From the NCBI RefSeq assembly GCF_003334765.1, contig NZ_QOWT01000040.1: 31,100 nt of DNA, one strand, 5' to 3'. This document shows positions 1 to 18,884 of the stretch, in pieces. The stretch comes from Escherichia coli. Lineage in GTDB: Bacteria > Pseudomonadota > Gammaproteobacteria > Enterobacterales > Enterobacteriaceae. Below the pieces are notes generated by a model. That model saw only the letters and a program-made list of their open reading frames with translations, had not been told where the DNA came from and did not search any database. A program made the translations under genes and the position numbers. Position 1 is the first letter of the stretch. Every line of letters starts with the position of its first letter.

Positions 1-74
1 AAATCGGCTCAAACATGAAGAAATGAAATGACTGAGTCAGCCGAGAAGTATTTCCCCGCTTATTCGCACCTTCC
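1..74 (+). mobile_element. IS5 right-end fragment; the element body lies left of the window
   Basis: Bases 1-74 match, from memory, the last ~75 bp of IS5. The reverse complement of 59-74 is the terminal inverted repeat GGAAGGTGCGAATAAG. The next 4 bp, TTAG (75-78), fit the IS5 YTAR target/duplication site. Not verified by alignment. Confidence 0.85.
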
Positions 75-130
75 TTAGTCGCGCGCTGAATGGAATTTAC
101 GCCTCTTTGGAAACATCTGATTGGGGAATA

Positions 131-487
131 ATGAAGTTATTTGAGGATTTAGCATATAGAAATTATAAGTCAAGCGCATGGTCCGCTATGCTAAGAAATA
201 AATTAAGATTGAGAATGGACGATAAGCTTGATGAAAAGATAATTTCAATAATTAATGAGAAAGAGCTTGGTAAAAAGTTTTATAGAATTGACAGAGATCG
301 TTTGTTATCGTTAATGTTAGATTATAATATTGATATACCAATTAATCTTAATAATATAATTTACCTTTGTAATTATTTTTTCATAAAATCTACGGAGCTT
401 CAGGATATAGCCCCTGCTTTAATAATGAAAAAGCTTACAGATGCTGATGAAAAATTCAATAAAAATACTATTTTAGCATCTAAATAA
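131..487 (+). CDS. hypothetical protein, 118 aa from ATG 131 (TTG 107 gives the 126-aa ORF)
   Basis: Very AT-rich ORF with no motif I recognise. The same frame stays open leftwards across the IS5 junction to a stop at 29-31, so this may be the 3' part of a gene split by IS5. A hairpin follows the stop codon. Confidence 0.45.
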   Translation: MKLFEDLAYRNYKSSAWSAMLRNKLRLRMDDKLDEKIISIINEKELGKKFYRIDRDRLLSLMLDYNIDIPINLNNIIYLCNYFFIKSTELQDIAPALIMKKLTDADEKFNKNTILASK

Positions 488-504
488 TAACTATCTCCGG
501 CTAT

Positions 505-534
505 TAAGTAGGCCTTGTATTTTAGGCCTACTTA
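505..534. repeat. 11-bp inverted repeat hairpin after the small ORF; possible terminator without a U-tract
   Basis: TAAGTAGGCCT (505-515) and AGGCCTACTTA (524-534) are perfect reverse complements with an 8-nt loop. Neither strand has a clear T-run after the hairpin. Confidence 0.4.
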
Positions 535-866
535 AAAAGTTTCATTATGTGAAGTGATGATGATAGCAAATCTGATATCTTTATGGTTGGATGCGAGAAA
601 ATATTTTTATCCCGACACAACAACTGGTAATGATAGAAAATTTAAACCCAAAAATGCTACAGTAGCCTCAGCTCACAAACGGAGTATAAAGTGGCGGTTA
701 CTCTTTAGTGGGAATACTGTAGATAGTTGATAAACTGGGCTGGATTTTCTTTTCTAACCGAAGGGAAGAAAAGCAAGGGGAACCCAAAGAAACAAGCGCA
801 GCGGCTTCGTAGGGTTAGCCCTTGCTTCTTTTATAATTGGCATTATTCATTCAAGAACAATAGGAT

Positions 867-886
867 CTTCGCTTGTACAAGCGAAG
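867..886. repeat. perfect 20-bp palindrome CTTCGCTTGT|ACAAGCGAAG
   Basis: The reverse complement of 867-876 equals 877-886 exactly. It lies in an ORF-poor AT-rich stretch downstream of the ParB-like genes. Half-site fragments ACAAGCG (792-798) and CTTCG (805-809) occur about 70 bp upstream. Confidence 0.8.
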
Positions 887-1539
887 CTATAATAAAAAAT
901 CAATTAATTATTTTAAAAGTATTAAGCAAGAGCCTATTGACATTCGTAAAATAAAAGTTATTTTTAATGTATGCCATAAATAAAAAGTTTTATGTCATAT
1001 GTATCCTGCACTATGTGCAGTTAATGTGCCACTTGTCCCATATATGGGAATATTGGAAAGGTTACTTTGTTTTGAAGTAGCCTTTCGTCCTTCAATATTC
1101 ACGATTACTTATTGCTATTACCAAGTCCAGTCGAATCGAAGAACATCTTTTATCTGAAACGACTCCTAATACCAGGTTGAAGCCACAATATCTCTCGCAT
1201 AAGTAGACCAAAGAAAAATTATGATATTAACTATGTGATTTTTTTTAGTGTTAAGTTGAATAATTATATACTGGAGAGTTTTCTGTACACTACCAATTGC
1301 TGGTTCATCTGTTCTGCCGCTGATGTTTCTGACTAATCTCCCGGTGACACAGAACTGTCCCTCTCTACCAGCCTTTATTCGACTCAATGTCCGGCTGCTG
1401 ATACGCAGTTATCCCTTCGTATCAATGACTGACTCTTAAACGCAATGCTTTGGTTGCTGGCGTATCTGACAGCTTCTTCGGCGTGAAGGTCGTTGTGTAA
1501 GTATACTTCTTGGTTTATTTAGGCTATATAAAACCATGA

Positions 1540-2436
1540 CTATGACTGGCTGTTTTCAGTAAGAGTCTTATCATCCAAAGAATTTATTCTAGAAATTCTT
1601 TTTAACTCATTAAGATAATCAACCTCGTTTTCTAAGAACCAATGAAGAACTTTAGAGTTGCCAAGTAATTTATTAATATATGACTGGATTATAACGAATT
1701 TCAACATATCTGAACCATACTCGGTTTGAAGTTTTTTCGTTTCTTCCGAAGTTGTTGCCATTTCTTGTTCCAGACGAAGTATGGTTTTTTTTATGTCCTT
1801 TTTATAGGGAGTGTTTTTCCCTTTATTTACTATCATCGATGACGGTGTTGCATCCAAGATGCTCATTGCAAATTTTTTACTATAATTATCAAAATTAATC
1901 ATTGTACCGACTGCTTCAATTTGACGAATTGGCTTCATTTTCCTCAAAACGTCAAATGTAGCCTTAGGTATAGGTTTATCAGAAAGTTTCGCAATTACAC
2001 TTGGATCTATGCCGTTCATCACATTAGCTTTATCTTTTATGGCATCAACAGATATGCCCAAAGCAGCACTAAGTTTTTCAATTGATACTTTTGCCAGAGA
2101 CTTAATTATCATTCTATGTTCTTCAACTACATTTATATGATTCACTTGTTTGTTAGGAGTGAAAGCATCATCTATGCTCGAAAGTATACATGGAGCTTTT
2201 TCTATATCTAAGTCTTTTAAAGCCTCAACCCTTAAATGGCCATCAAGTATCTTAGTGACATCTTTATCTTTGTCATAGAATACTATTATTGGTTCAATAA
2301 TACCCAAGCTTTCGATAGAGGTAACTATTTGATGATATTTATGGCTTCGCTTTACGTTTTCTAATAATTCCTTAGATGGAATTAACTTATTAGTTTCCAG
2401 GTAAATAAAATTTTTGCCAAAACGTATCTGAATCAT
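1540..2436 (-). CDS. ParB/Srx N-terminal domain protein B (298 aa), third gene of the triad
   Basis: ParB-like motifs: SIESLGIIEPIIV (compare GLLQPIxV), ILDGHLRVEAL (a D-G-x-x-R patch at residues 65-69) and an HTH-like IEKLSAALGISVDAIKDKANVM. Its ATG shares ATGA (2433-2436) with the upstream stop. An AGAGGT Shine-Dalgarno sits 6 nt upstream. Confidence 0.8.
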   Translation of the reverse strand: MIQIRFGKNFIYLETNKLIPSKELLENVKRSHKYHQIVTSIESLGIIEPIIVFYDKDKDVTKILDGHLRVEALKDLDIEKAPCILSSIDDAFTPNKQVNHINVVEEHRMIIKSLAKVSIEKLSAALGISVDAIKDKANVMNGIDPSVIAKLSDKPIPKATFDVLRKMKPIRQIEAVGTMINFDNYSKKFAMSILDATPSSMIVNKGKNTPYKKDIKKTILRLEQEMATTSEETKKLQTEYGSDMLKFVIIQSYINKLLGNSKVLHWFLENEVDYLNELKRISRINSLDDKTLTENSQS

Positions 2437-3329
2437 TTTGATACCTCTTTGTTTACTGGGTTTAATATCTGAGATGGTAGTTCTGAAAGATTCTCTTGTT
2501 CAAGTATATTTTGAAAGCTTTTATTCATCATTATGATGTTAAAAATCTCATTTATTATTAGTAGATTGGTTTTTATAAATTTCGAGTTGTTATAAACAGA
2601 TTTATGTTCAGCGATACTATTTTCATAAAGCTCAATCAACTCCTCTGCAGTCATCCTTTTTGATGGTTTGTGATAATAAAATCCGGCTGCTTTTGCACCT
2701 TTATTCCCAACTGTTCTTTGATTTAGAATGTATTTTATCTTTATAATGTCCCGACTTTTTATTAATTTTTTATCATATGCTTCGGTAAGAATATCTTGTG
2801 CTTCCTCAGTTTCACATCTTGCAAATTGCACTGCGAGATACAGAGGCAAATTACCCCGTTCGACTGCTGAGAGAAGTTTATGCTCTCCCTTATCAAGAAG
2901 CATATTAATACTGCTCACCCAGTTCGATGAATATCCAGTAATCTCACTTATTTCGGAGTCTGAAAGTCCTCTGATTTTCATGTCTTTAATCACCTGTAAT
3001 AACTCATTAGAACGTGGTCTTCTCCTTGCAATGTTTTCAACTAAACTCATAACGTAAGCATCTTCTTCTGATACATCTCTTATAATTGCTGGAATAATAG
3101 TTTCACCTAATGCAACAAGAGCCTCTATTCTCCCTTGACCACAAATTAAAGCATATTTGAAATCGTCTTCATCAATAGCTCTTACGCTTATAGGCTTGCT
3201 TAATCCTCTTTTTTTTATGCTTTCCTTTATTTCTTCATGCACTACCTTATTTCTTGTTCGTGGGTTAAGAAATTTTATTTTTGCAATCTCAATTTGAATT
3301 ATTGGGAATTCATTTTTTTCAGGCAGCAT
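2433..3329 (-). CDS. ParB-like N-terminal + HTH domain protein A (298 aa), second gene of the triad
   Basis: Motifs: FLNPRTRN, GLSKPISVRAI and ICGQGRIEAL (a reduced GxxR arginine patch at residues 64-67). SLVENIARRRPRSNELLQVIKDMKIRGLSDSEISEITGYSSNWVSSINMLL parallels the ParB ENLQR...HTH segment. The C-terminal ~120 aa is unrecognised. A GAGGGA Shine-Dalgarno sits 5 nt before ATG 3327-3329. The start overlaps the recombinase stop by 11 nt. Confidence 0.8.
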   Translation of the reverse strand: MLPEKNEFPIIQIEIAKIKFLNPRTRNKVVHEEIKESIKKRGLSKPISVRAIDEDDFKYALICGQGRIEALVALGETIIPAIIRDVSEEDAYVMSLVENIARRRPRSNELLQVIKDMKIRGLSDSEISEITGYSSNWVSSINMLLDKGEHKLLSAVERGNLPLYLAVQFARCETEEAQDILTEAYDKKLIKSRDIIKIKYILNQRTVGNKGAKAAGFYYHKPSKRMTAEELIELYENSIAEHKSVYNNSKFIKTNLLIINEIFNIIMMNKSFQNILEQENLSELPSQILNPVNKEVSK

Positions 3330-4875
3330 ATAGTTCCCTCACTTTCATGCGAGTAATAATTTGTAGAAATTTATCAAGATTATCAAATCTATAGAGATCT
3401 AACCGAATGTTGTTTGTTTCCATCATACACATTTTACTATATTCGTTTTCAATCTTTGGTATGATATAAAAATCAAGAGGTGAAATATTTTGTGAATTCA
3501 TTCGTATAACAATTGTTATGTCTGCTTTCTGTGAGTTATCAAACCGGACTTTCCATCTAAGTTTACCTGATTTCATATGTATGCATTTAGTAACAAGGAC
3601 GGAAATTAAAAACTCATCATTGATGTAAAGCATTGGGTAATATTTATACTCGTCTATATGACAGTTACTTTTTAATATTTCGCCCTTAAAATCCTCAATT
3701 ATCTCTGAGTAAAATGATCTTAGTGCTTCATTTATTTGGAGATAGCTGTAATCATGTTCTGGCTTATAACCAATCAAAGTATATGCTCTTAAAAGACCAC
3801 CAAATCGGGTTCTATAAACAGAAGATGAAGGGCCTGTATCATCTTCATCAATGATAAAGCCTGATAGTTTTCCATTAGATTCTAATTTTTCTTTTAGCTT
3901 TTCTAATAGATCTTCATTAGTCAAATGAATGGATCGGAGCTGAATTATTTCTTGAGCTTTATTATATTTTTTCTTTGAAATAATTGGTTTATATGCCTTG
4001 TCACATCTAATCCATTCATGTTTGGGGTTTTTTACAAGCTTACTTTTTAGTTTAGATGAGGTTTTGTTATATATGTTGTTTCCAATATATTTTTCATTTG
4101 TCAAAATTTGATGTATTTTTGCACGAGTCCATGATGTTCCATTTTCTGCAGGTATGCTCTGTTCATTTAATCTCTCAGCAATAATGAATTCTGGGACGTT
4201 ACTATCTATAAAGAGATCATAGATTCTATTTACAATTTTTATTTCATTTTTTGGTCCCGGAATTAATATTACCCTATCTGTTTGAATACTCTTTCTTTTG
4301 CGGAAATTCAATATTTCTTTAGCTATGCCATTTTCGTCTACTAAAAGACGTCTCAGCCCATAACCAGCCATACCGCCTTGATGATAACCAAGCTTTATTA
4401 AATTTACTTGCCCTATAAATACCTTTTCAGATAGATTCCTGCTGTGATATGCAGCACTTGATCTTTTTATATTCAGTATAACAGAGGACTCTAAAGGGAA
4501 ATCTTTAGTGGGTATAGGTTCGGAACAATATATAAGATCTACACCATTTCTTTCAAATAGAAAGGAATAATATGCAGCTTCATCACTATTTTGAAAACGA
4601 CCAAAACGGCTCACATCATAAAATAATACAGCCTGTATATCTATTTTCTTTTGTTCTACATCGCTAAGTAACTGCTGCAAAGAATGCCTGCCTACGATAC
4701 TGACTCCGCTCTTACCTGCATCATCGTAGGTATAAGCGATTTCCATATTGTTCTTTTCAGCATAATCTTTGATATATTCAGACTGATTATGTAAAGAATA
4801 TTGCTGATGGTCGGTAGACATCCTCAAGTACTGTGCGACCCTAACTCTATGATTTTTTTCATTTCCGCTAGCCAT
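3319..4875 (-). CDS. large serine recombinase family protein, 518 aa from ATG 4875 (ORF opens at TTG 4881)
   Basis: Resolvase catalytic-domain motifs: YLRMSTDHQ (the nucleophile Ser context), DAGKSG and VSRFGR. Recombinase-domain motif: WTRAKIHQILTNEKYIGN. No CxxC pair occurs anywhere in the protein, so no zinc ribbon is apparent. A GAGG sits 8 nt before ATG 4873-4875. Confidence 0.85.
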   Translation of the reverse strand: MASGNEKNHRVRVAQYLRMSTDHQQYSLHNQSEYIKDYAEKNNMEIAYTYDDAGKSGVSIVGRHSLQQLLSDVEQKKIDIQAVLFYDVSRFGRFQNSDEAAYYSFLFERNGVDLIYCSEPIPTKDFPLESSVILNIKRSSAAYHSRNLSEKVFIGQVNLIKLGYHQGGMAGYGLRRLLVDENGIAKEILNFRKRKSIQTDRVILIPGPKNEIKIVNRIYDLFIDSNVPEFIIAERLNEQSIPAENGTSWTRAKIHQILTNEKYIGNNIYNKTSSKLKSKLVKNPKHEWIRCDKAYKPIISKKKYNKAQEIIQLRSIHLTNEDLLEKLKEKLESNGKLSGFIIDEDDTGPSSSVYRTRFGGLLRAYTLIGYKPEHDYSYLQINEALRSFYSEIIEDFKGEILKSNCHIDEYKYYPMLYINDEFLISVLVTKCIHMKSGKLRWKVRFDNSQKADITIVIRMNSQNISPLDFYIIPKIENEYSKMCMMETNNIRLDLYRFDNLDKFLQIITRMKVRELYAA

Positions 4876-5157
4876 GCACAAAACCTCATGGATGATTCAA
4901 TACAATGTAGAGGATAAAATTGATCAAATTTTAACCGAATTCAACTGTTTTATCATTGATTAGAGCGAATTTGGTAGTTCTTCGAGGTGTATGATAATCG
5001 AGAAGAGATGTGAATTATTTAGCTGATATGACCGACAGCTTTCGTTATGTGGCCTCAAGGTACCCATTTGTAAATGGCTATGCTTAGTCCACATAGGTTA
5101 ATGGTGTGATCATTAATTCTTCAAATAAATCAAGATAGTTAACCCATCATGGAAGAG

Positions 5158-6387
5158 TTATGCGGCAATAACTTTGTATTTTTGAGACGAAACATAGTCA
5201 CTCCACCATTGCATGAGAACCACACGTTCTGTGAGATACTCTGCACGATTGTAGGCTGCAATTATTTCATCTTTTTTCGAGTGGGCAAGGGCGGCTTCTA
5301 AGACATCAGTTCTAAACTTGCCACACTCCTCAGCCGCCGTTCTAGCGATTGATCGCATACCATGAGCTACAAGCTCACCTCCGAAGCCCATACGGATTAT
5401 AGCCGCATTAGCTGTTTGTTCATGCATGTGATTGAGTGGAGCTTTGATACTGGGAAAAACCCACTCTCTATGCCCGCTGATGGCTTTCATTGAATCCAAG
5501 ACTCGCAAAGATTCTTTGCTCAGTGGAACTTTGTGAGGCTTCTTCATTTTCATAAACTCCGCCGGGATGTTCCACATGCTGGTTTCTATATCAATATCTG
5601 ACCATCTTGTGCGAACAGCTTCACCAGGGCGAACCCATGTGAGAAGTTGCCACTCAATCAGTAGCCTTGTTTCTAAACGGATAGAAGCATTGTTTAGAGC
5701 AACCAGGAAGCGGGGGAGTTCGGAAGGGGGTAATGCTGGCATATTCTGTTTTTTTGGCTTGCTGAACCGTTGCCCCAGGTTGTCAGCCGGATTGAATTCT
5801 ATGAGTTCTTCTGTTGCTGCATAGCGGAAAATTTCATTCAGGCGGGATATGACGCGGCGAAGTGTTTCAAGGACACCTCGTTTTTCTATGGGGTCTAAAT
5901 GCTGTTTAAGCATTTTAGGGCGAATCTCCTTAATGGGGGTATCACCCAACGTTGGAAAGATATTTCTCTCTAGGCTTCGCCAGATGTCGTTAGCATGATC
6001 CTGGGAGATGCCTGACGTTTTGACTTTCTCATCAAGCCACTTCTTGGCTACTGCTTGAAATGTATGTTCCGTTGCATCCTTAAGGGCATTGGCTTTGTGG
6101 GTGTTATGAATTTGTGGGTCTATACCATTTGCAAGCAACGACAAGTACTCATCACGTAAAGCTCGTGCCTTCGCAAGTGTAAGGTGAGGATAGGTTCCTA
6201 AGCTCACCTTAGTTCGCTTTTTGGTCACAGGCACTGCATATCTGAAATACCAATTTTTCTTTCCTCCCTTCGCTAAGGGGGCGATTCGCAGGAGCAAACC
6301 ATCGCCGTCAAAAAGGTTAACCTCTTTCTCGGCAGGTTTGGTGCTTTTGATTTCAGTGTCAGTGAGCTTCTTAGCGATTTTTGCCAT
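5158..6387 (-). CDS. int: P4/IntA-family tyrosine integrase, 409 aa from ATG 6387
   Basis: The N-terminus MAKIAKKLTDTEIKSTKP...FDGDGLLLRI is typical of P4-type integrases. Catalytic-region motifs: TWVRPGEA, HGMRSIART, LAH and AAYNRAEY. It lies directly next to the 3' end of ssrA. The 457-aa ORF extension to 6531 is rejected because it runs through the ssrA terminator hairpin, and a GAGGG Shine-Dalgarno precedes ATG 6385-6387. Confidence 0.9.
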   Translation of the reverse strand: MAKIAKKLTDTEIKSTKPAEKEVNLFDGDGLLLRIAPLAKGGKKNWYFRYAVPVTKKRTKVSLGTYPHLTLAKARALRDEYLSLLANGIDPQIHNTHKANALKDATEHTFQAVAKKWLDEKVKTSGISQDHANDIWRSLERNIFPTLGDTPIKEIRPKMLKQHLDPIEKRGVLETLRRVISRLNEIFRYAATEELIEFNPADNLGQRFSKPKKQNMPALPPSELPRFLVALNNASIRLETRLLIEWQLLTWVRPGEAVRTRWSDIDIETSMWNIPAEFMKMKKPHKVPLSKESLRVLDSMKAISGHREWVFPSIKAPLNHMHEQTANAAIIRMGFGGELVAHGMRSIARTAAEECGKFRTDVLEAALAHSKKDEIIAAYNRAEYLTERVVLMQWWSDYVSSQKYKVIAA

Positions 6388-6483
6388 GTTTGGGACCCTC
6401 ATGTTTTGGACCCTTTGTGTTGGGTCCCAAAAAGGGTGCCATAACGAGTAGATTCTAGCAATTCTCGGTAGACTACTATAGAC

Positions 6484-6520
6484 GTAAAAAAGCCCGCAAG
6501 GCTGGTTCCATGCGGGCTTG
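6484..6520 (-). terminator. rho-independent terminator downstream of ssrA, on the island side
   Basis: 9-bp stem AAGCCCGCA (6490-6498) / TGCGGGCTT (6511-6519). On the minus strand the hairpin is followed by TTTTTT. Confidence 0.7.
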
Positions 6521-6553
6521 ATAGACTTCACTGAACTTCAATATATCAAAAAT

Positions 6554-6916
6554 TGGTGGAGCTGGCGGGAGTTGAACCCGCGTCCGAAATTCCTACATCC
6601 TCGGTACTACATGCTTAGTCAGTCTTTACATTCGCTTGCCAGCTGCGGACGGACACGCCACTAACAAACTAGCCTGATTAAGTTTTAACGCTTCAACCCC
6701 AGGCAGGGCTTCCACGCGATCTCTTTTGGGTTTGACCTCTCTTGATCCCCGTCCTAAGAGCGGAGGCTAGGGAGAGAGGGCTCTAAGCAGGTTATTAAGC
6801 TGCTAAAGCGTAGTTTTCGTCGTTTGCGACTATTTTTTGCGGCTTTTTACGAGGCCAACCGCCCCTCGGCATGCACCTTGGGTTTCGCAAATCCCGTCGA
6901 ATCCAGAATCAGCCCC
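6554..6916 (-). ncRNA. ssrA: tmRNA (SsrA), 363 nt
   Basis: The reverse complement reads GGGGCTGATTCTGGATTCGACGGGATTTGCG ... GGGTTCAACTCCCGCCAGCTCCACCA. The tag reading frame GCAAACGACGAAAACTACGCTTTAGCAGCTTAA (ANDENYALAA) is at 6795-6827. Confidence 0.97.
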
Positions 6917-10799: not shown

Positions 10800-11678
10800 T
10801 TAGAATAATTTTTTTGACCAGCCGAGCTTGGTGCTTAATGTGTTGAAATAACTGTAATCTTTCGGATGAATCAGATTCAGATGGTAATCACAGCGACGAA
10901 TCAGGACATCTTCACCTTCCTGAATCGGCAGTGCTATCTGGCTGTCGCAACTGATTTCCAGGTCGTTACGGCGATGCGAAAAACGCAGACGGATCGTGCT
11001 GCTGCTGTTTATGACCAGTGGTCGTGCTGACAACGTATGCGGGAACATGGGCACCAGGGTAATCGCATCCAGAGAGGGGGTCAGAATAGGACCGCCTGCA
11101 GAGAGGGAATAGGCGGTGGAGCCTGTTGGCGTCGAAATAATTAGTCCATCAGATCGCTGAGAAAACGCAAAGATCTCGTCGATATACACTTCGAACTCAA
11201 TCATATGCGCCACTTTGCCTGGATGAAGCACCACTTCATTTATCGCGGTGCTGATGCGTTTCTGGCAATCTTGCTGACAGACTTGCGCTTCCAGCAAAAA
11301 ACGTTTCTCGCTGATGTAGTGGCCTTCCAGCACATCGGCTAACTGTTGCTGGGCGTTATCGGGGTCAAGGTCAGTCAGGAAACCCAGGTTGCCACGGTTG
11401 ATTCCAATAACTTTAATATCGTAACGGGCGAGTGTGCGTGCCGCGCCCAGCATATTACCGTCGCCACCAACGACTACCGCGAGATCAGCTAGTTGCCCAA
11501 TCTCCGCGAGCGTGCCAGTTTTCACATTCTTCAGTTGCAGTTCGTGAGCGATTTGTTGCTCAACGATGACCTCGTAACCTTTTGTGCACAGCCAGCGGTA
11601 GAGCATTTCATGTGTTGTCAGTGCAGTGGGGTGCCGTGGGTGTCCCACAATGCCAATACACTTGAAATGATTATTCAT
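10800..11678 (-). CDS. nadK: NAD kinase
   Basis: 292 aa. GGDGN motif ([14 protein letters not shown]). N-terminus [17 protein letters not shown] recognised. Confidence 0.95.
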
Positions 11679-12448: not shown

Positions 12449-13711
12449 TTACTCCGCCACACTCTCGCGCAGCGGTTTCACAGGAAAAACTTTTACCTGC
12501 TTAATCATATTGTCCTGTACGTCGAGAATATCGATATCGTACTCGCCAATACGCACGCGGGTGCCTGCGACAGGGATCTCTTCCAGTGCCTCAAGAATGA
12601 CGCCATTAACCGTGCGGGCATCATCTTCCGGTAGATGCCAGTTAAAGGCTTTGTTGATTTCCCGCACGTTGGCGGTGCCATCGATAATCACCGAACCGTC
12701 GTTTTGCGGCGTGACCTCTTCGGCAAGTGTTGGCGACATCGACGTAGTGAAATCGCCGACAATCTCTTCCAGAATATCTTCAACCGTCACCAGCCCCTGA
12801 ATGTCTCCATACTCGTTGACGACCAGGCCGACTTTCTTTTTGTTGCGCTGAAACTTTACCAACTGCGTGCTGAGCGGCGTACCTTCCGGCACAAAATAGA
12901 TCTCGTCCGCGGCGCGCAGCATGGTTTCTTTGGTGAACTCTTTTTTCTCCGACATCAACCGCCAGGCTTCACGTACTCGCAGCATACTGATGGCGTCGTC
13001 CAGCGAATCACGGTAGAGCACGATGCGCCCGTGAGGTGAGTGGGAGAGTTGGCGCAGAATCGATTTCCAGTCATCGTTGATATCAATACCGATAATTTCA
13101 CTGCGCGGCACCATGATGTCATCAACGGTCATTTTTTCCAGATCGAGCACCGACAGCAGCATATCCTGATTGCGACGGGAAATTTGTGAGCGTGATTCGT
13201 GCACGATAGTGCGCAACTCTTCTTTGCTCAAAGAGCCGCTAACCACGATATCGGTTTTGATACCCATCATGCGCATCAGCATACGGGTGATAGCATTCAG
13301 CAACCAGACCAGCGGCATCATCAAAATTTGCAGCGGAGCCAGCAGAAAACTACTCGGATAAGCGACTTTTTCCGGGTACAGCGCGGCAATGGTTTTCGGC
13401 AATACCTCAGCAAATACCAGTACGACAAAAGTCAGCACACCAGTCGCAATTGCCACGCCCGCATCGCCGTACAAACGCATCCCAACAATAGTGCCGAGCG
13501 CGGAGGCAAGAATATTGACCAGGTTATTGCCGATTAACACCAGGCTTATCAGGCGGTCTGGCTTACGCAGCAATTTTTCGACGCGTTTGGCCGAGCGATT
13601 ACCCTGTTTCGCCATATGTCGCAGACGATAGCGGTTGAGGGTCATCATTCCGGTTTCGGACCCGGAAAAATAGGCTGAAATGACCACCATGATGATCAGA
13701 ATAATGATCAA
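12449..13711 (-). CDS. yfjD: CNNM/CorB-type inner membrane protein YfjD (DUF21-CBS-CorC_HlyC)
   Basis: The 420-aa ORF is recognised from K-12 synteny and sequence. The N-terminal boundary is uncertain. TTG 13709-13711 is the ORF-track start. The frame stays open upstream, and a GGAG lies 6 nt before CTG 13733-13735. ATG 13688-13690 is the first internal ATG. Confidence 0.85.
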   Translation of the reverse strand: MIIILIIMVVISAYFSGSETGMMTLNRYRLRHMAKQGNRSAKRVEKLLRKPDRLISLVLIGNNLVNILASALGTIVGMRLYGDAGVAIATGVLTFVVLVFAEVLPKTIAALYPEKVAYPSSFLLAPLQILMMPLVWLLNAITRMLMRMMGIKTDIVVSGSLSKEELRTIVHESRSQISRRNQDMLLSVLDLEKMTVDDIMVPRSEIIGIDINDDWKSILRQLSHSPHGRIVLYRDSLDDAISMLRVREAWRLMSEKKEFTKETMLRAADEIYFVPEGTPLSTQLVKFQRNKKKVGLVVNEYGDIQGLVTVEDILEEIVGDFTTSMSPTLAEEVTPQNDGSVIIDGTANVREINKAFNWHLPEDDARTVNGVILEALEEIPVAGTRVRIGEYDIDILDVQDNMIKQVKVFPVKPLRESVAE

Positions 13712-18356: not shown

Positions 18357-18386
18357 GGGCTGGCCAATTGGCTGGCCCTTTTTTAT
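18357..18386 (+). terminator. rplS operon terminator
   Basis: GGGCTGGCCAA / TTGGCTGGCCC hairpin (two G-U pairs), followed by TTTTTT. Confidence 0.8.
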
Positions 18387-18401
18387 CTGTTTGCTGGTGT
18401 T

Positions 18402-18884
18402 TTAAGGGGTAGTAATCACCACTGCGACGCGGCGGTTCTCGGCGCGGCCCTGGGCGGTCTTGTTACTGGCTATGGGATATTTTTTTCCTAAACCCTGTGT
18501 GGTGAGATTGCTGCGTGGAATTTGTCCACCCATAGCCCATGCATCGGCCACGACATTCGCCCGTTTCAATGATAAGCCTTCGTTGTAACTGTCTTCACCA
18601 TAGTTATCGGTGTGTCCATCCATACGGGCATGTGTTAGCCCTGTCGAGGCCAATTTAGCTGCCATGGTTTGGATCTGTTGCTGGCTTTCCGGGAGCAATT
18701 TGTAGTCATTTTTTGCGAACAGAATGGCATCTGATAAGCCCAGCGACCAGTCGCCGGCGGATTCAGTAAATCCATAAGATTGCATAGCGGCGACTTGCTC
18801 AGGAGTAAACTTTCCCTGAGGGGACTGGCAGCCAGTCAGTATTAGTGAGGTGAAAACCAGGGGTGCTACCAGGTGCTTTATCAT
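18402..18884 (-). CDS. yfiB: OmpA-family lipoprotein YfiB
   Basis: 160 aa. Lipobox LTGC and a C-terminal OmpA-like motif (NRRV). Confidence 0.92.
   Translation of the reverse strand: MIKHLVAPLVFTSLILTGCQSPQGKFTPEQVAAMQSYGFTESAGDWSLGLSDAILFAKNDYKLLPESQQQIQTMAAKLASTGLTHARMDGHTDNYGEDSYNEGLSLKRANVVADAWAMGGQIPRSNLTTQGLGKKYPIASNKTAQGRAENRRVAVVITTP

Follow-up and report, generated by a model that had tools for sequence, protein, structure and literature searches.

A serine recombinase-ParB-ParB gene triad adjoining the integrase of a mobilizable island at the Escherichia coli tmRNA gene

The DNA analyzed here, referred to as the window, is a stretch of 31,100 nucleotides from the Escherichia coli assembly GCF_003334765.1 (contig NZ_QOWT01000040.1). 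At positions 79 to 6553, it contains one end of a genomic island that abuts the 3′ end of ssrA, the gene for transfer-messenger RNA (tmRNA). An initial annotation of this DNA had described ssrA, a P4-type tyrosine integrase, a spacer, and a triad of genes encoding a large serine recombinase (LSR) and two ParB-like proteins. All of these are present at the positions it had given. Like ssrA, the integrase gene (int) and all three triad genes lie on the minus strand. From ssrA inward, the locus is composed of the following features.

6554-6916, minus strand: ssrA (tmRNA), found by ARAGORN and by the Rfam tmRNA model (295.8 bits), bearing the enterobacterial tag ANDENYALAA
6554-6568: attachment (att) core, the last 15 nt of ssrA, which reads TGGTGGAGCTGGCGG on the plus strand
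6388-6553, minus strand: island-side att arm and upstream region of int
5158-6531, minus strand: open reading frame (ORF) of the P4-type tyrosine integrase; the RefSeq start gives 5158-6387 and 409 amino acids
4882-5157: int-LSR spacer of 276 bp (4876-5157, or 282 bp, from the LSR start at 4875), co-inherited with both genes
5046-5095: 50-bp quasi-palindrome of two 24-nt arms, 18/24 matched, with a central GT
3319-4875/4881, minus strand: LSR, 518 amino acids (Pfam Resolvase, 7.6e-22; Recombinase, 5.4e-22)
2433-3329, minus strand: ParB1, 298 amino acids, ParB/Noc/KorB-like (Pfam ParB_N and RepB)
1540-2436, minus strand: ParB2, 298 amino acids, a degenerate ParB/RepB paralog (Pfam ParB_N and RepB, 5e-24)
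1492-1539, minus strand: conserved 48-bp tail past the ParB2 stop, the last sequence common to all enterobacterial int-triad blocks

The integrase contains the Pfam domains Arm-DNA-bind_3, Phage_int_M, and Phage_integrase, matches NCBIfam NF007246 with 444 bits, and is 49% identical to IntA of CP4-57. It directly adjoins the ssrA 3′ end, for which it is specific. The initial annotation had also seen neither an excisionase gene next to int nor a second ssrA 3′ end and had concluded that the distal att site lies left of the IS5 or has been lost. For this part of the window, both observations are accurate: the ORF list, Pfam, and a scan of the spacer revealed no AlpA/Xis-like gene among the ORFs of 79 to 6553, and an exact k-mer search of the window found no second ssrA 3′ end in 1 to 6500. 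The island as a whole, as seen in relatives, has both. In E. coli H3 (locus L001), it is uninterrupted and extends over ~24 kb from ssrA to ypjA, the slot of CP4-57 in K-12, and it carries RelA/SpoT and NACHT-type cargo, copies of insertion sequences (IS), a relaxase gene, and an AlpA gene near its far end. The latter encodes a 68-amino-acid Phage_AlpA protein (E = 1.4e-19; L001 3634-3840) that is 36% identical to K-12 AlpA and lies ~22 kb from int. Next to ypjA is a distal att copy, TGGTGG-GCTGGCG (L001 2217-2229), which equals the ssrA 3′ end minus one base. Because of this 1-nt deletion, the exact-word search missed the distal copy, and it was recovered by comparing the flank with K-12: the ypjA-side flanks of K-12 and H3 are 100% identical and end in the annotated pseudo-ssrA of K-12, psaA. 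The lack of an excisionase gene and a distal att site in the window is thus most probably due to truncation of the island by the IS whose end occupies positions 1 to 74 and which we take to be IS5. Collectively, the uninterrupted relatives show that the element is an integrative mobilizable island with a single att pair.

The relaxase of the H3 island is of the MobA/VirD2 type (L001 9901-11148), and the annotation of the 24-kb island in this relative lists no type IV secretion genes. In relatives, the island is therefore an integrative mobilizable element (IME), with its own relaxase and without a full conjugation apparatus. The tmRNA locus is E. coli defense hotspot #9, which holds prophages, satellites, IMEs, and transposons (Hochhauser et al. 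2023, PMC10121019). Like the elements described for that hotspot, the present island is bounded by an integrase, mobilizable, and equipped with swappable defense-type cargo at the tmRNA gene, and in itself it is nothing unusual, a further IME at an established hotspot. The terms "serine recombinase" and "ParB" do not occur in the main text of that study (PMC10121019), and the backbone of int and triad is not described there. With CP4-57, the island shares the slot between ssrA and ypjA, the distal pseudo-ssrA repeat, a P4-type integrase, and an AlpA-family protein, whereas gene content differs: CP4-57 is a prophage remnant that lacks the triad, while the present island carries a relaxase and the triad and has its AlpA gene at the far end rather than beside int. 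By analogy with CP4-57, Int and AlpA would excise the complete island from the 3′ tip of ssrA and integrate it there, and the relaxase would, as CP4-57 and P4-type systems suggest, let a helper conjugative element mobilize it.

Within Enterobacteriaceae, int and the triad form a uniform block. The triad is present in 661 of 5426 complete E. coli genomes (~12%, including BL21(DE3)), with int at an identity of at least 90% in 635. It is always chromosomal (0 of 662 E. coli places are on a plasmid), with a median of one copy per genome and at most two places. In every enterobacterial case inspected (E. coli H3, S3, EC7518, BL21(DE3), MRE162, and 2020CK-00188; Klebsiella quasipneumoniae; Enterobacter asburiae; Salmonella), the order is ssrA-int-(282 bp)-LSR-ParB1-ParB2; the spacing is fixed, and in this family the triad was never seen apart from this integrase. 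The cargo after ParB2 is wholly different between islands and includes RelA/SpoT-NACHT, Hxs/TIGR04141, Mrr/HNH, ABC/ThiF, OLD-TOPRIM plus UvrD, and HNH_5/DUF5677, those of Klebsiella, Enterobacter, and Salmonella being Mrr/HNH, OLD-TOPRIM plus UvrD, and HNH_5. These comparisons show the island cargo to be variable and defense-like. When the window was compared to Klebsiella quasipneumoniae and Salmonella enterica (L087 and L091), the block of int upstream region, int, spacer, and triad was 97.5 to 99.5% identical, while the adjoining core DNA was 83 to 95% identical or unalignable. That the block is far more alike than its core flanks indicates recent transfer of int and triad between genera as one unit, and the unit that moves today is this ~5-kb backbone, not the triad alone. 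In BL21(DE3) (L004, NZ_CP053602.1, 19045-24988), an IS1-associated deletion left only int and the triad at ssrA: the IS1 beside ParB2 abuts glaH, so that the remaining island DNA is missing together with the neighboring chromosome as far as glaH. For experimental work, this strain offers a handy minimal construct of natural origin. The same ssrA site in Salmonella also holds a P2-like prophage, integrated in tandem.

The triad is an uncharacterized variant built from known protein families. The residues Y18, R20, S22, Q26, D89, and R92 of the LSR are invariant among its homologs, and its PDB matches are TP901-1, TnpX, and SprA. A confident structure model (predicted local distance difference test score [pLDDT] of 84.7) best matched SprA, Bxb1, and phiC31 over ~330 columns. 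The LSR shares the catalytic Ser/Arg motif and the recombinase domain with other large serine recombinases (SPbeta SprA, Bxb1, phiC31, TP901-1, TnpX, and CcrAB), but the match of both sequence and model to SprA, Bxb1, phiC31, and TP901-1 is limited to these catalytic and recombinase domains. The C-terminal ~190 amino acids are non-canonical, helical at first and then rich in β-structure. Pfam found no zinc ribbon there, no Cys4 motif is conserved among 30 homologs, and residues 330 to 520 of the model did not align to the zinc-ribbon and coiled-coil domains (ZD/CC) of SprA, Bxb1, phiC31, or LI Int. A further difference is that those recombinases act with a small directionality factor, whereas the partners here are two ParB paralogs; also, no att sites were identified for the triad LSR.

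The two ParB genes overlap, and the paralogs are translationally coupled to the LSR gene. Comparison of 69 orthologs showed that ParB1 keeps the CTPase-fold motifs PITV (box I), GxGRxxA, and ENxARR as well as the helix-turn-helix (HTH) region, whereas DGHxR and QEHxM replace the canonical motifs in ParB2. ParB1 aligns with Spo0J (1vz0) over residues 8 to 188 and with Spo0J, Noc, and KorB through the HTH, and ParB2 has a weak match to Noc (7ol9). A ParABS partition system has a ParB with CTPase motifs and an HTH, features that ParB1 has, but also a cognate ParA and parS; no ParA-type gene adjoins the triad in any annotated locus, and no parS-like or res-like repeat family was identified. The closer likeness is to the non-partition ParB-CTPases Noc, KorB, and VirB, with which ParB1 shares box I, GxxRxxA, ENxxR, the HTH, and the lack of a ParA partner. 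The triad differs from them in having two paralogs, one of them degenerate, with RepB-type C-terminal domains and translational coupling to a serine recombinase. BisD of ICEclc is a further protein of this non-partition class. All three triad genes are under purifying selection, with ratios of nonsynonymous to synonymous substitution (dN/dS) of 0.05 for ParB1, 0.07 for ParB2, and 0.12 to 0.18 for the LSR. PADLOC-DB v2 has no match for the LSR or ParB1, and ParB2 weakly matches (23.9 bits) the ParB-like N terminus of a type II methyltransferase model. No specific NCBIfam family names the triad, and full-text literature searches found no description of it.

The LSR family extends far beyond Enterobacteriaceae and comprises 1351 clusters at E ≤ 1e-30; outside the enterobacteria, its closest members share at most 46% identity. 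We fetched 80 loci with a profile of diverse homologs, which included Alpha-, Beta-, and Gammaproteobacteria, Acidobacteria, Planctomycetes, and others, and found LSR, ParB1, and ParB2 in the same order in ~76 of them. A P4-type integrase lies within 10 kb of the triad in only two of the sampled loci, and homology between divergent triad loci stops sharply around the module. The triad is also found on 67 plasmids. On pAtC58 of Agrobacterium fabrum C58 (L095, NC_003064.2, 6532-10340), it consists of ATU_RS24145, ATU_RS24140, and ATU_RS24135, is flanked by an AbiE pair (with its AbiEii toxin gene) on one side and a Fic gene on the other, and has a small divergent gene, ATU_RS24150, upstream. On a Piscinibacter plasmid (L096, NZ_CP136338.1, 1485-10328), it starts 93 bp past tniQ of a Tn7-like tnsA-tnsB-tniB-tniQ set; the position after tniQ is where Tn7-like transposons carry cargo. 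In an acidobacterial locus (L030), the triad lies within a tRNA-Ala island that has a 54-bp att repeat and an unrelated tyrosine integrase. This survey shows the triad to be an ancient, self-contained, and widespread three-gene unit of separate ancestry, often beside the recombination genes of mobile elements. Direct repeats around individual triads were considered as att sites of the triad and rejected: that of L030 is the genuine tRNA-Ala att pair of the whole island, those of L074 are IS21-like fragments, and those of L064 and L077 are short repeats resembling repetitive extragenic palindromes (REP-like). In L009, L019, and L065, the DNA that separates tRNA genes from triads contains Fic, HipA, and a phage remnant but no tyrosine integrase. 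The triad is carried as well by a 7.5-kb gut virome contig of low GC content; this contig has no terminal repeat and thus gives no evidence for a free circular form.

In Alphaproteobacteria, the module is preceded by a small divergent HTH gene and an operator-like palindrome and is followed, 10 to 70 nt past the ParB2 stop and always on the sense strand, by a conserved non-coding element of ~133 nt, examples of which are given below.

L008, 13344-13475
L026, 4730-4863
L062, 13368-13499
36 further loci (covariance model R1)

Across the alignment of 39 sequences, base pairing holds in 97.4% of cells, compensatory changes occur at 14 pairs, and none of 500 shuffles reached the observed values; many G-U pairs are compatible with the sense strand only. 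A search of the copies in L008, L026, and L040 against the 4227 covariance models of Rfam returned no match at E ≤ 0.1. Covariation thus makes the element a candidate for a new structured RNA or RNA family. It is not universal to triads, since R1 had no matches in the E. coli window, E. coli-type loci, pAtC58, or the Piscinibacter plasmid. In L013, two copies of the RNA element (13340-13472 and 18374-18505) bracket a two-gene cargo, a 1162-amino-acid ORF without a Pfam match and a PIN_12 protein, a layout that resembles a cassette between repeated sites; in L079, an inserted DDE transposase displaces the element by 4 kb.

In the E. coli window, the spacer between int and LSR yielded nothing above chance when it was searched for a small regulator ORF, promoters, and terminators. 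It contains the quasi-palindrome at 5046-5095, which reads TATGTGGCCTCAAGGTACCCATTT GT AAATGGCTATGCTTAGTCCACATA and is the only one of its kind in the 31-kb window, where chance would give 0.05 to 0.15. BL21 and L093 retain it. An RNA hairpin or terminator was rejected as an explanation (z = −0.84), and no half-site partner was found. The layout is that of a serine-integrase att site, and we regard this sequence as a candidate protein-binding or recombination site, and only as a lead.

How the triad came to be joined to int can be approached through islands that differ in their arrangement. One E. coli ssrA island (L094) has no triad: its int, 84% identical to that of the window, is followed directly by a UvrD/OLD-nuclease pair and an MvdD gene, and in the Enterobacter island L089 this order of cargo genes recurs behind the triad. 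Furthermore, in a class of islands at 94% identity (64 E. coli genomes), in L093, and in Enterobacter, the 48-bp ParB2 tail is directly followed by a relic integrase 3′ end, a pseudogene comprising the last ~230 to 330 nt of an int gene plus ~25 bp, which over its full length is most similar (82%) to the very int class that is linked to the triad. Spacer and triad are therefore bracketed, in these sister lineages, by a direct repeat of int 3′ ends, and recombination between the repeats would delete the triad and leave an arrangement like that of L094. The lineage of the window has lost the relic int; from 1491 leftwards it has other relic DNA. Alleles of int are themselves mosaic. That of L093 is 97 to 99% identical to L094 over nt 1 to 500 and 92 to 97% identical to the window over nt 900 to 1230 and on through the triad, which indicates that homologous recombination inside int moves its 3′ part together with the triad between islands. 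Two origins fit these observations: a Campbell-type insertion of a circle containing the int 3′ end, spacer, and triad, or tandem ssrA islands followed by deletion.

Base composition does not help to separate the triad from its surroundings. The GC content is 32.5% for the triad, 46% for int, and ~50% for the core. The initial annotation had taken GC-richer DNA on both sides of the triad as a sign of nesting, and its hand counts are exact (97 of 200 at 1301-1500; 48 of 120 at 4981-5100). The left side of this bracket is, however, a mere 200-bp patch within DNA of 34.6% GC (79-1539), and the RelA/SpoT gene has 28.9%. Since the cargo beyond the triad is as AT-rich as the triad, the compositional argument for nesting fails; composition sets apart the integrase, not the triad.

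Considering all of these data, we find it fairly probable that positions 79 to 6553 are the ssrA-proximal end of a ~24-kb mobilizable defense island in the CP4-57 slot, truncated by IS5, in which the triad is a guest module joined to int. On this reading, the triad became attached to the int 3′ end in an ancestor of the enterobacterial islands; since then, int and triad have been inherited and transferred as a fixed ~5-kb backbone while the cargo beyond was exchanged and int alleles recombined. The LSR may be catalytically competent and act on a DNA site of its own, for which 5046-5095 is the candidate, and ParB1, probably with the degenerate ParB2, may act as a CTP-dependent DNA clamp. Such a reaction might serve the module or the excised island in mobility, resolution, or regulation, rather than integration at ssrA. 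Several points weigh against the guest-module reading. Without a recognizable zinc-ribbon/coiled-coil domain, integrase-like activity of the LSR is not assured, and a search for 2-nt-centered quasi-palindromes near triads in 76 loci gave one unrelated match, with no counterpart of 5046-5095 in other lineages. Neither an att pair nor an empty site or a circle of the triad by itself was found. The point at ~1492 where lineages diverge may be a deletion endpoint rather than the end of a module, and the tblastn alignment of Int begins ~16 nt before it; tandem ssrA islands followed by a deletion would equally account for the relic int 3′ end. Because the triad is never apart from int in Enterobacteriaceae, it may be an integral function of the island and not a guest. 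Finally, none of the 5426 complete E. coli genomes shares the IS5 junction of the window, so that the distal island end of the source strain itself is out of view.

The initial annotation had favored nesting, with the triad inserted as its own unit into a pre-existing integrase island. Part of this proposal stands, since the triad is a separable unit (~76 of 80 loci, in other element types), the triad-less L094 exists, and int 3′ repeats flank the triad; as for the rest, composition lends it no support, in Enterobacteriaceae the triad shows no independence from int, and no att pair or empty site of its own was found. In its strongest form, the triad would be a still-active autonomous element whose LSR integrates and excises it, with the ParBs as accessory factors, nested in an older integrase island. 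The sharp ends of homology in many independent locus pairs, the occurrence on plasmids, on a Tn7-like transposon, and in islands with unrelated integrases, the triad-less island and the int repeats, the att-like quasi-palindrome adjoining the LSR, and the selected, intact catalytic residues all suit such an element. We nevertheless consider it unlikely, given the single median copy, the absence from E. coli plasmids, the constant enterobacterial position beside the same int, the lack of a partner half-site or att pair, and an LSR in which the typical C-terminal DNA-binding domain of serine integrases is not recognizable; moreover, direct repeats of 230 to 330 bp are not made by serine integrases. 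Alternatively, a minimal island of int and triad may have integrated at ssrA beside a resident island of int and cargo, and the two may then have been fused by a deletion covering the att site between them and the 5′-most ~300 codons of the second int. The relic is indeed a pseudogene that lacks its 5′ part, extends ~25 bp past the int stop codon, and best matches the triad-linked class, the P2-like prophage of Salmonella exemplifies tandem occupancy, and many elements are known to use the tmRNA site (PMC10121019). Neither an intact tandem intermediate nor a free-standing mini-island was seen, however, that of BL21 having arisen by IS1 deletion, and the recurrence of the triad beside unrelated mobility modules would be left unexplained, so we regard such accretion as somewhat doubtful.

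Strict co-inheritance with int and joint transfer between genera are also what would be expected if the triad were an integral, not separately mobile module of its host element, in which the LSR resolves multimers or cointegrates and the ParB pair clamps, partitions, silences, or anti-silences the AT-rich island in its excised or integrated state. The triad adjoins a recombination or transposition module in several element types, ParB1 keeps its CTPase motifs and resembles the non-partition proteins Noc and KorB, and the module of other lineages is accompanied by a small regulator gene and an operator-like palindrome of its own. Yet there is no ParA partner in any locus, parS-like or res-like repeats were not identified, islands of this family exist and persist without the triad, and BL21 keeps int and triad with no island left to maintain; this explanation is possible, though we lean against it. 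That the triad is simply cargo, a previously undescribed system for defense or competition between elements in a hotspot next to an integrase, we consider quite improbable. Its neighbors are nearly always defense or toxin genes (Gabija-like, Mrr/HNH, AbiE, Fic, HipA, PIN, NACHT, and RelA/SpoT), and cargo accumulates beside int or tniQ, but the PADLOC results (ParB2 weakly, LSR and ParB1 not at all) give little sign of a defense system, and a fixed position while the neighboring cargo swaps is unlike ordinary cargo. To our knowledge, no defense mechanism has a large serine recombinase as its effector, which also counts against this explanation.

The interest of the locus lies in the three-gene block beside the integrase, which is widespread, selected, and moved between genera and matches no defense-system model. 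A broader and tentative proposal is that triads form a previously undescribed class of self-contained hitchhiker modules that colonize the recombinase-proximal end of tyrosine-integrase islands, Tn7-like transposons, and plasmids and that might move themselves or exchange adjacent cargo by means of a serine recombinase with a non-canonical DNA-binding domain and a pair of ParB-type CTP clamps, possibly with an RNA. If the triad is a recombination or maintenance device that combines a ParB-type CTP clamp with a serine recombinase, this would be a new partnership for both families, and such a device might account for the exchange of cargo beside an integrase backbone that stays fixed. RIT (recombinase-in-trio) cassettes consist of three tyrosine recombinases in fixed order and occur in distant phyla and on diverse replicons. 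The triad is presumably comparable to them as a fixed, ordered recombinase cassette, but it is composed of a serine recombinase and two ParB-like proteins and is not known to share homology with them.

To the left of the triad, the window contains the remnant of the cargo and the IS end.

1-74: end of an IS5-type insertion sequence, with the terminal repeat ...CTTATTCGCACCTTCC, read from the sequence
75-78: TTAG target duplication, directly after the IS end
79-487, plus strand: 3′ part of a RelA/SpoT-domain cargo gene (RefSeq coding sequence L001 19510-20415; also in L006)
488-1491: relic, mostly non-coding stretch between cargo and triad, including the GC-rich patch 1301-1500

The IS, which is multi-copy in E. 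coli, interrupts the RelA/SpoT-domain gene and truncates the island in the source strain. Homology to uninterrupted islands begins at position 73, and the 6.9 kb from there are 100% identical to many complete E. coli genomes. The full-length cargo protein from relatives has a Pfam RelA_SpoT domain (E = 3.2e-15), and its gene is paired there with a NACHT-domain gene upstream. Within the relic stretch, RefSeq labels a fragment of an IS3-family transposase pseudogene at ~1355-1466, and in Klebsiella an intact IS3-family element is inserted at the equivalent of position 1392. Homology of the window with the islands of the 94% class stops at 1489-1493.

At the other edge of the island, a terminator-like hairpin and T-run are found on the minus strand at 6503-6491, ~50 nt beyond the ssrA 3′ end. 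Because they sit on the island side, the island appears to supply the downstream terminator of ssrA. An Rfam match to IsrM at 6486-6563 was dismissed (42 bits compared to a gathering score of 376). The remainder of the window, 6917-31100, is conserved E. coli core (smpB, ratA, yfjF, bamE, recN, nadK, and grpE onward), as judged by comparison with L001. Directly after the ParB2 stop lies a tract of GGTTAT/ATGGTT hexamers (window ~1520-1535; L089 ~11340-11370; L093 ~5570-5655), with one to two units in the window, three in Enterobacter, and ~13 in E. coli 2020CK-00188; this tract may be a hypervariable microsatellite.

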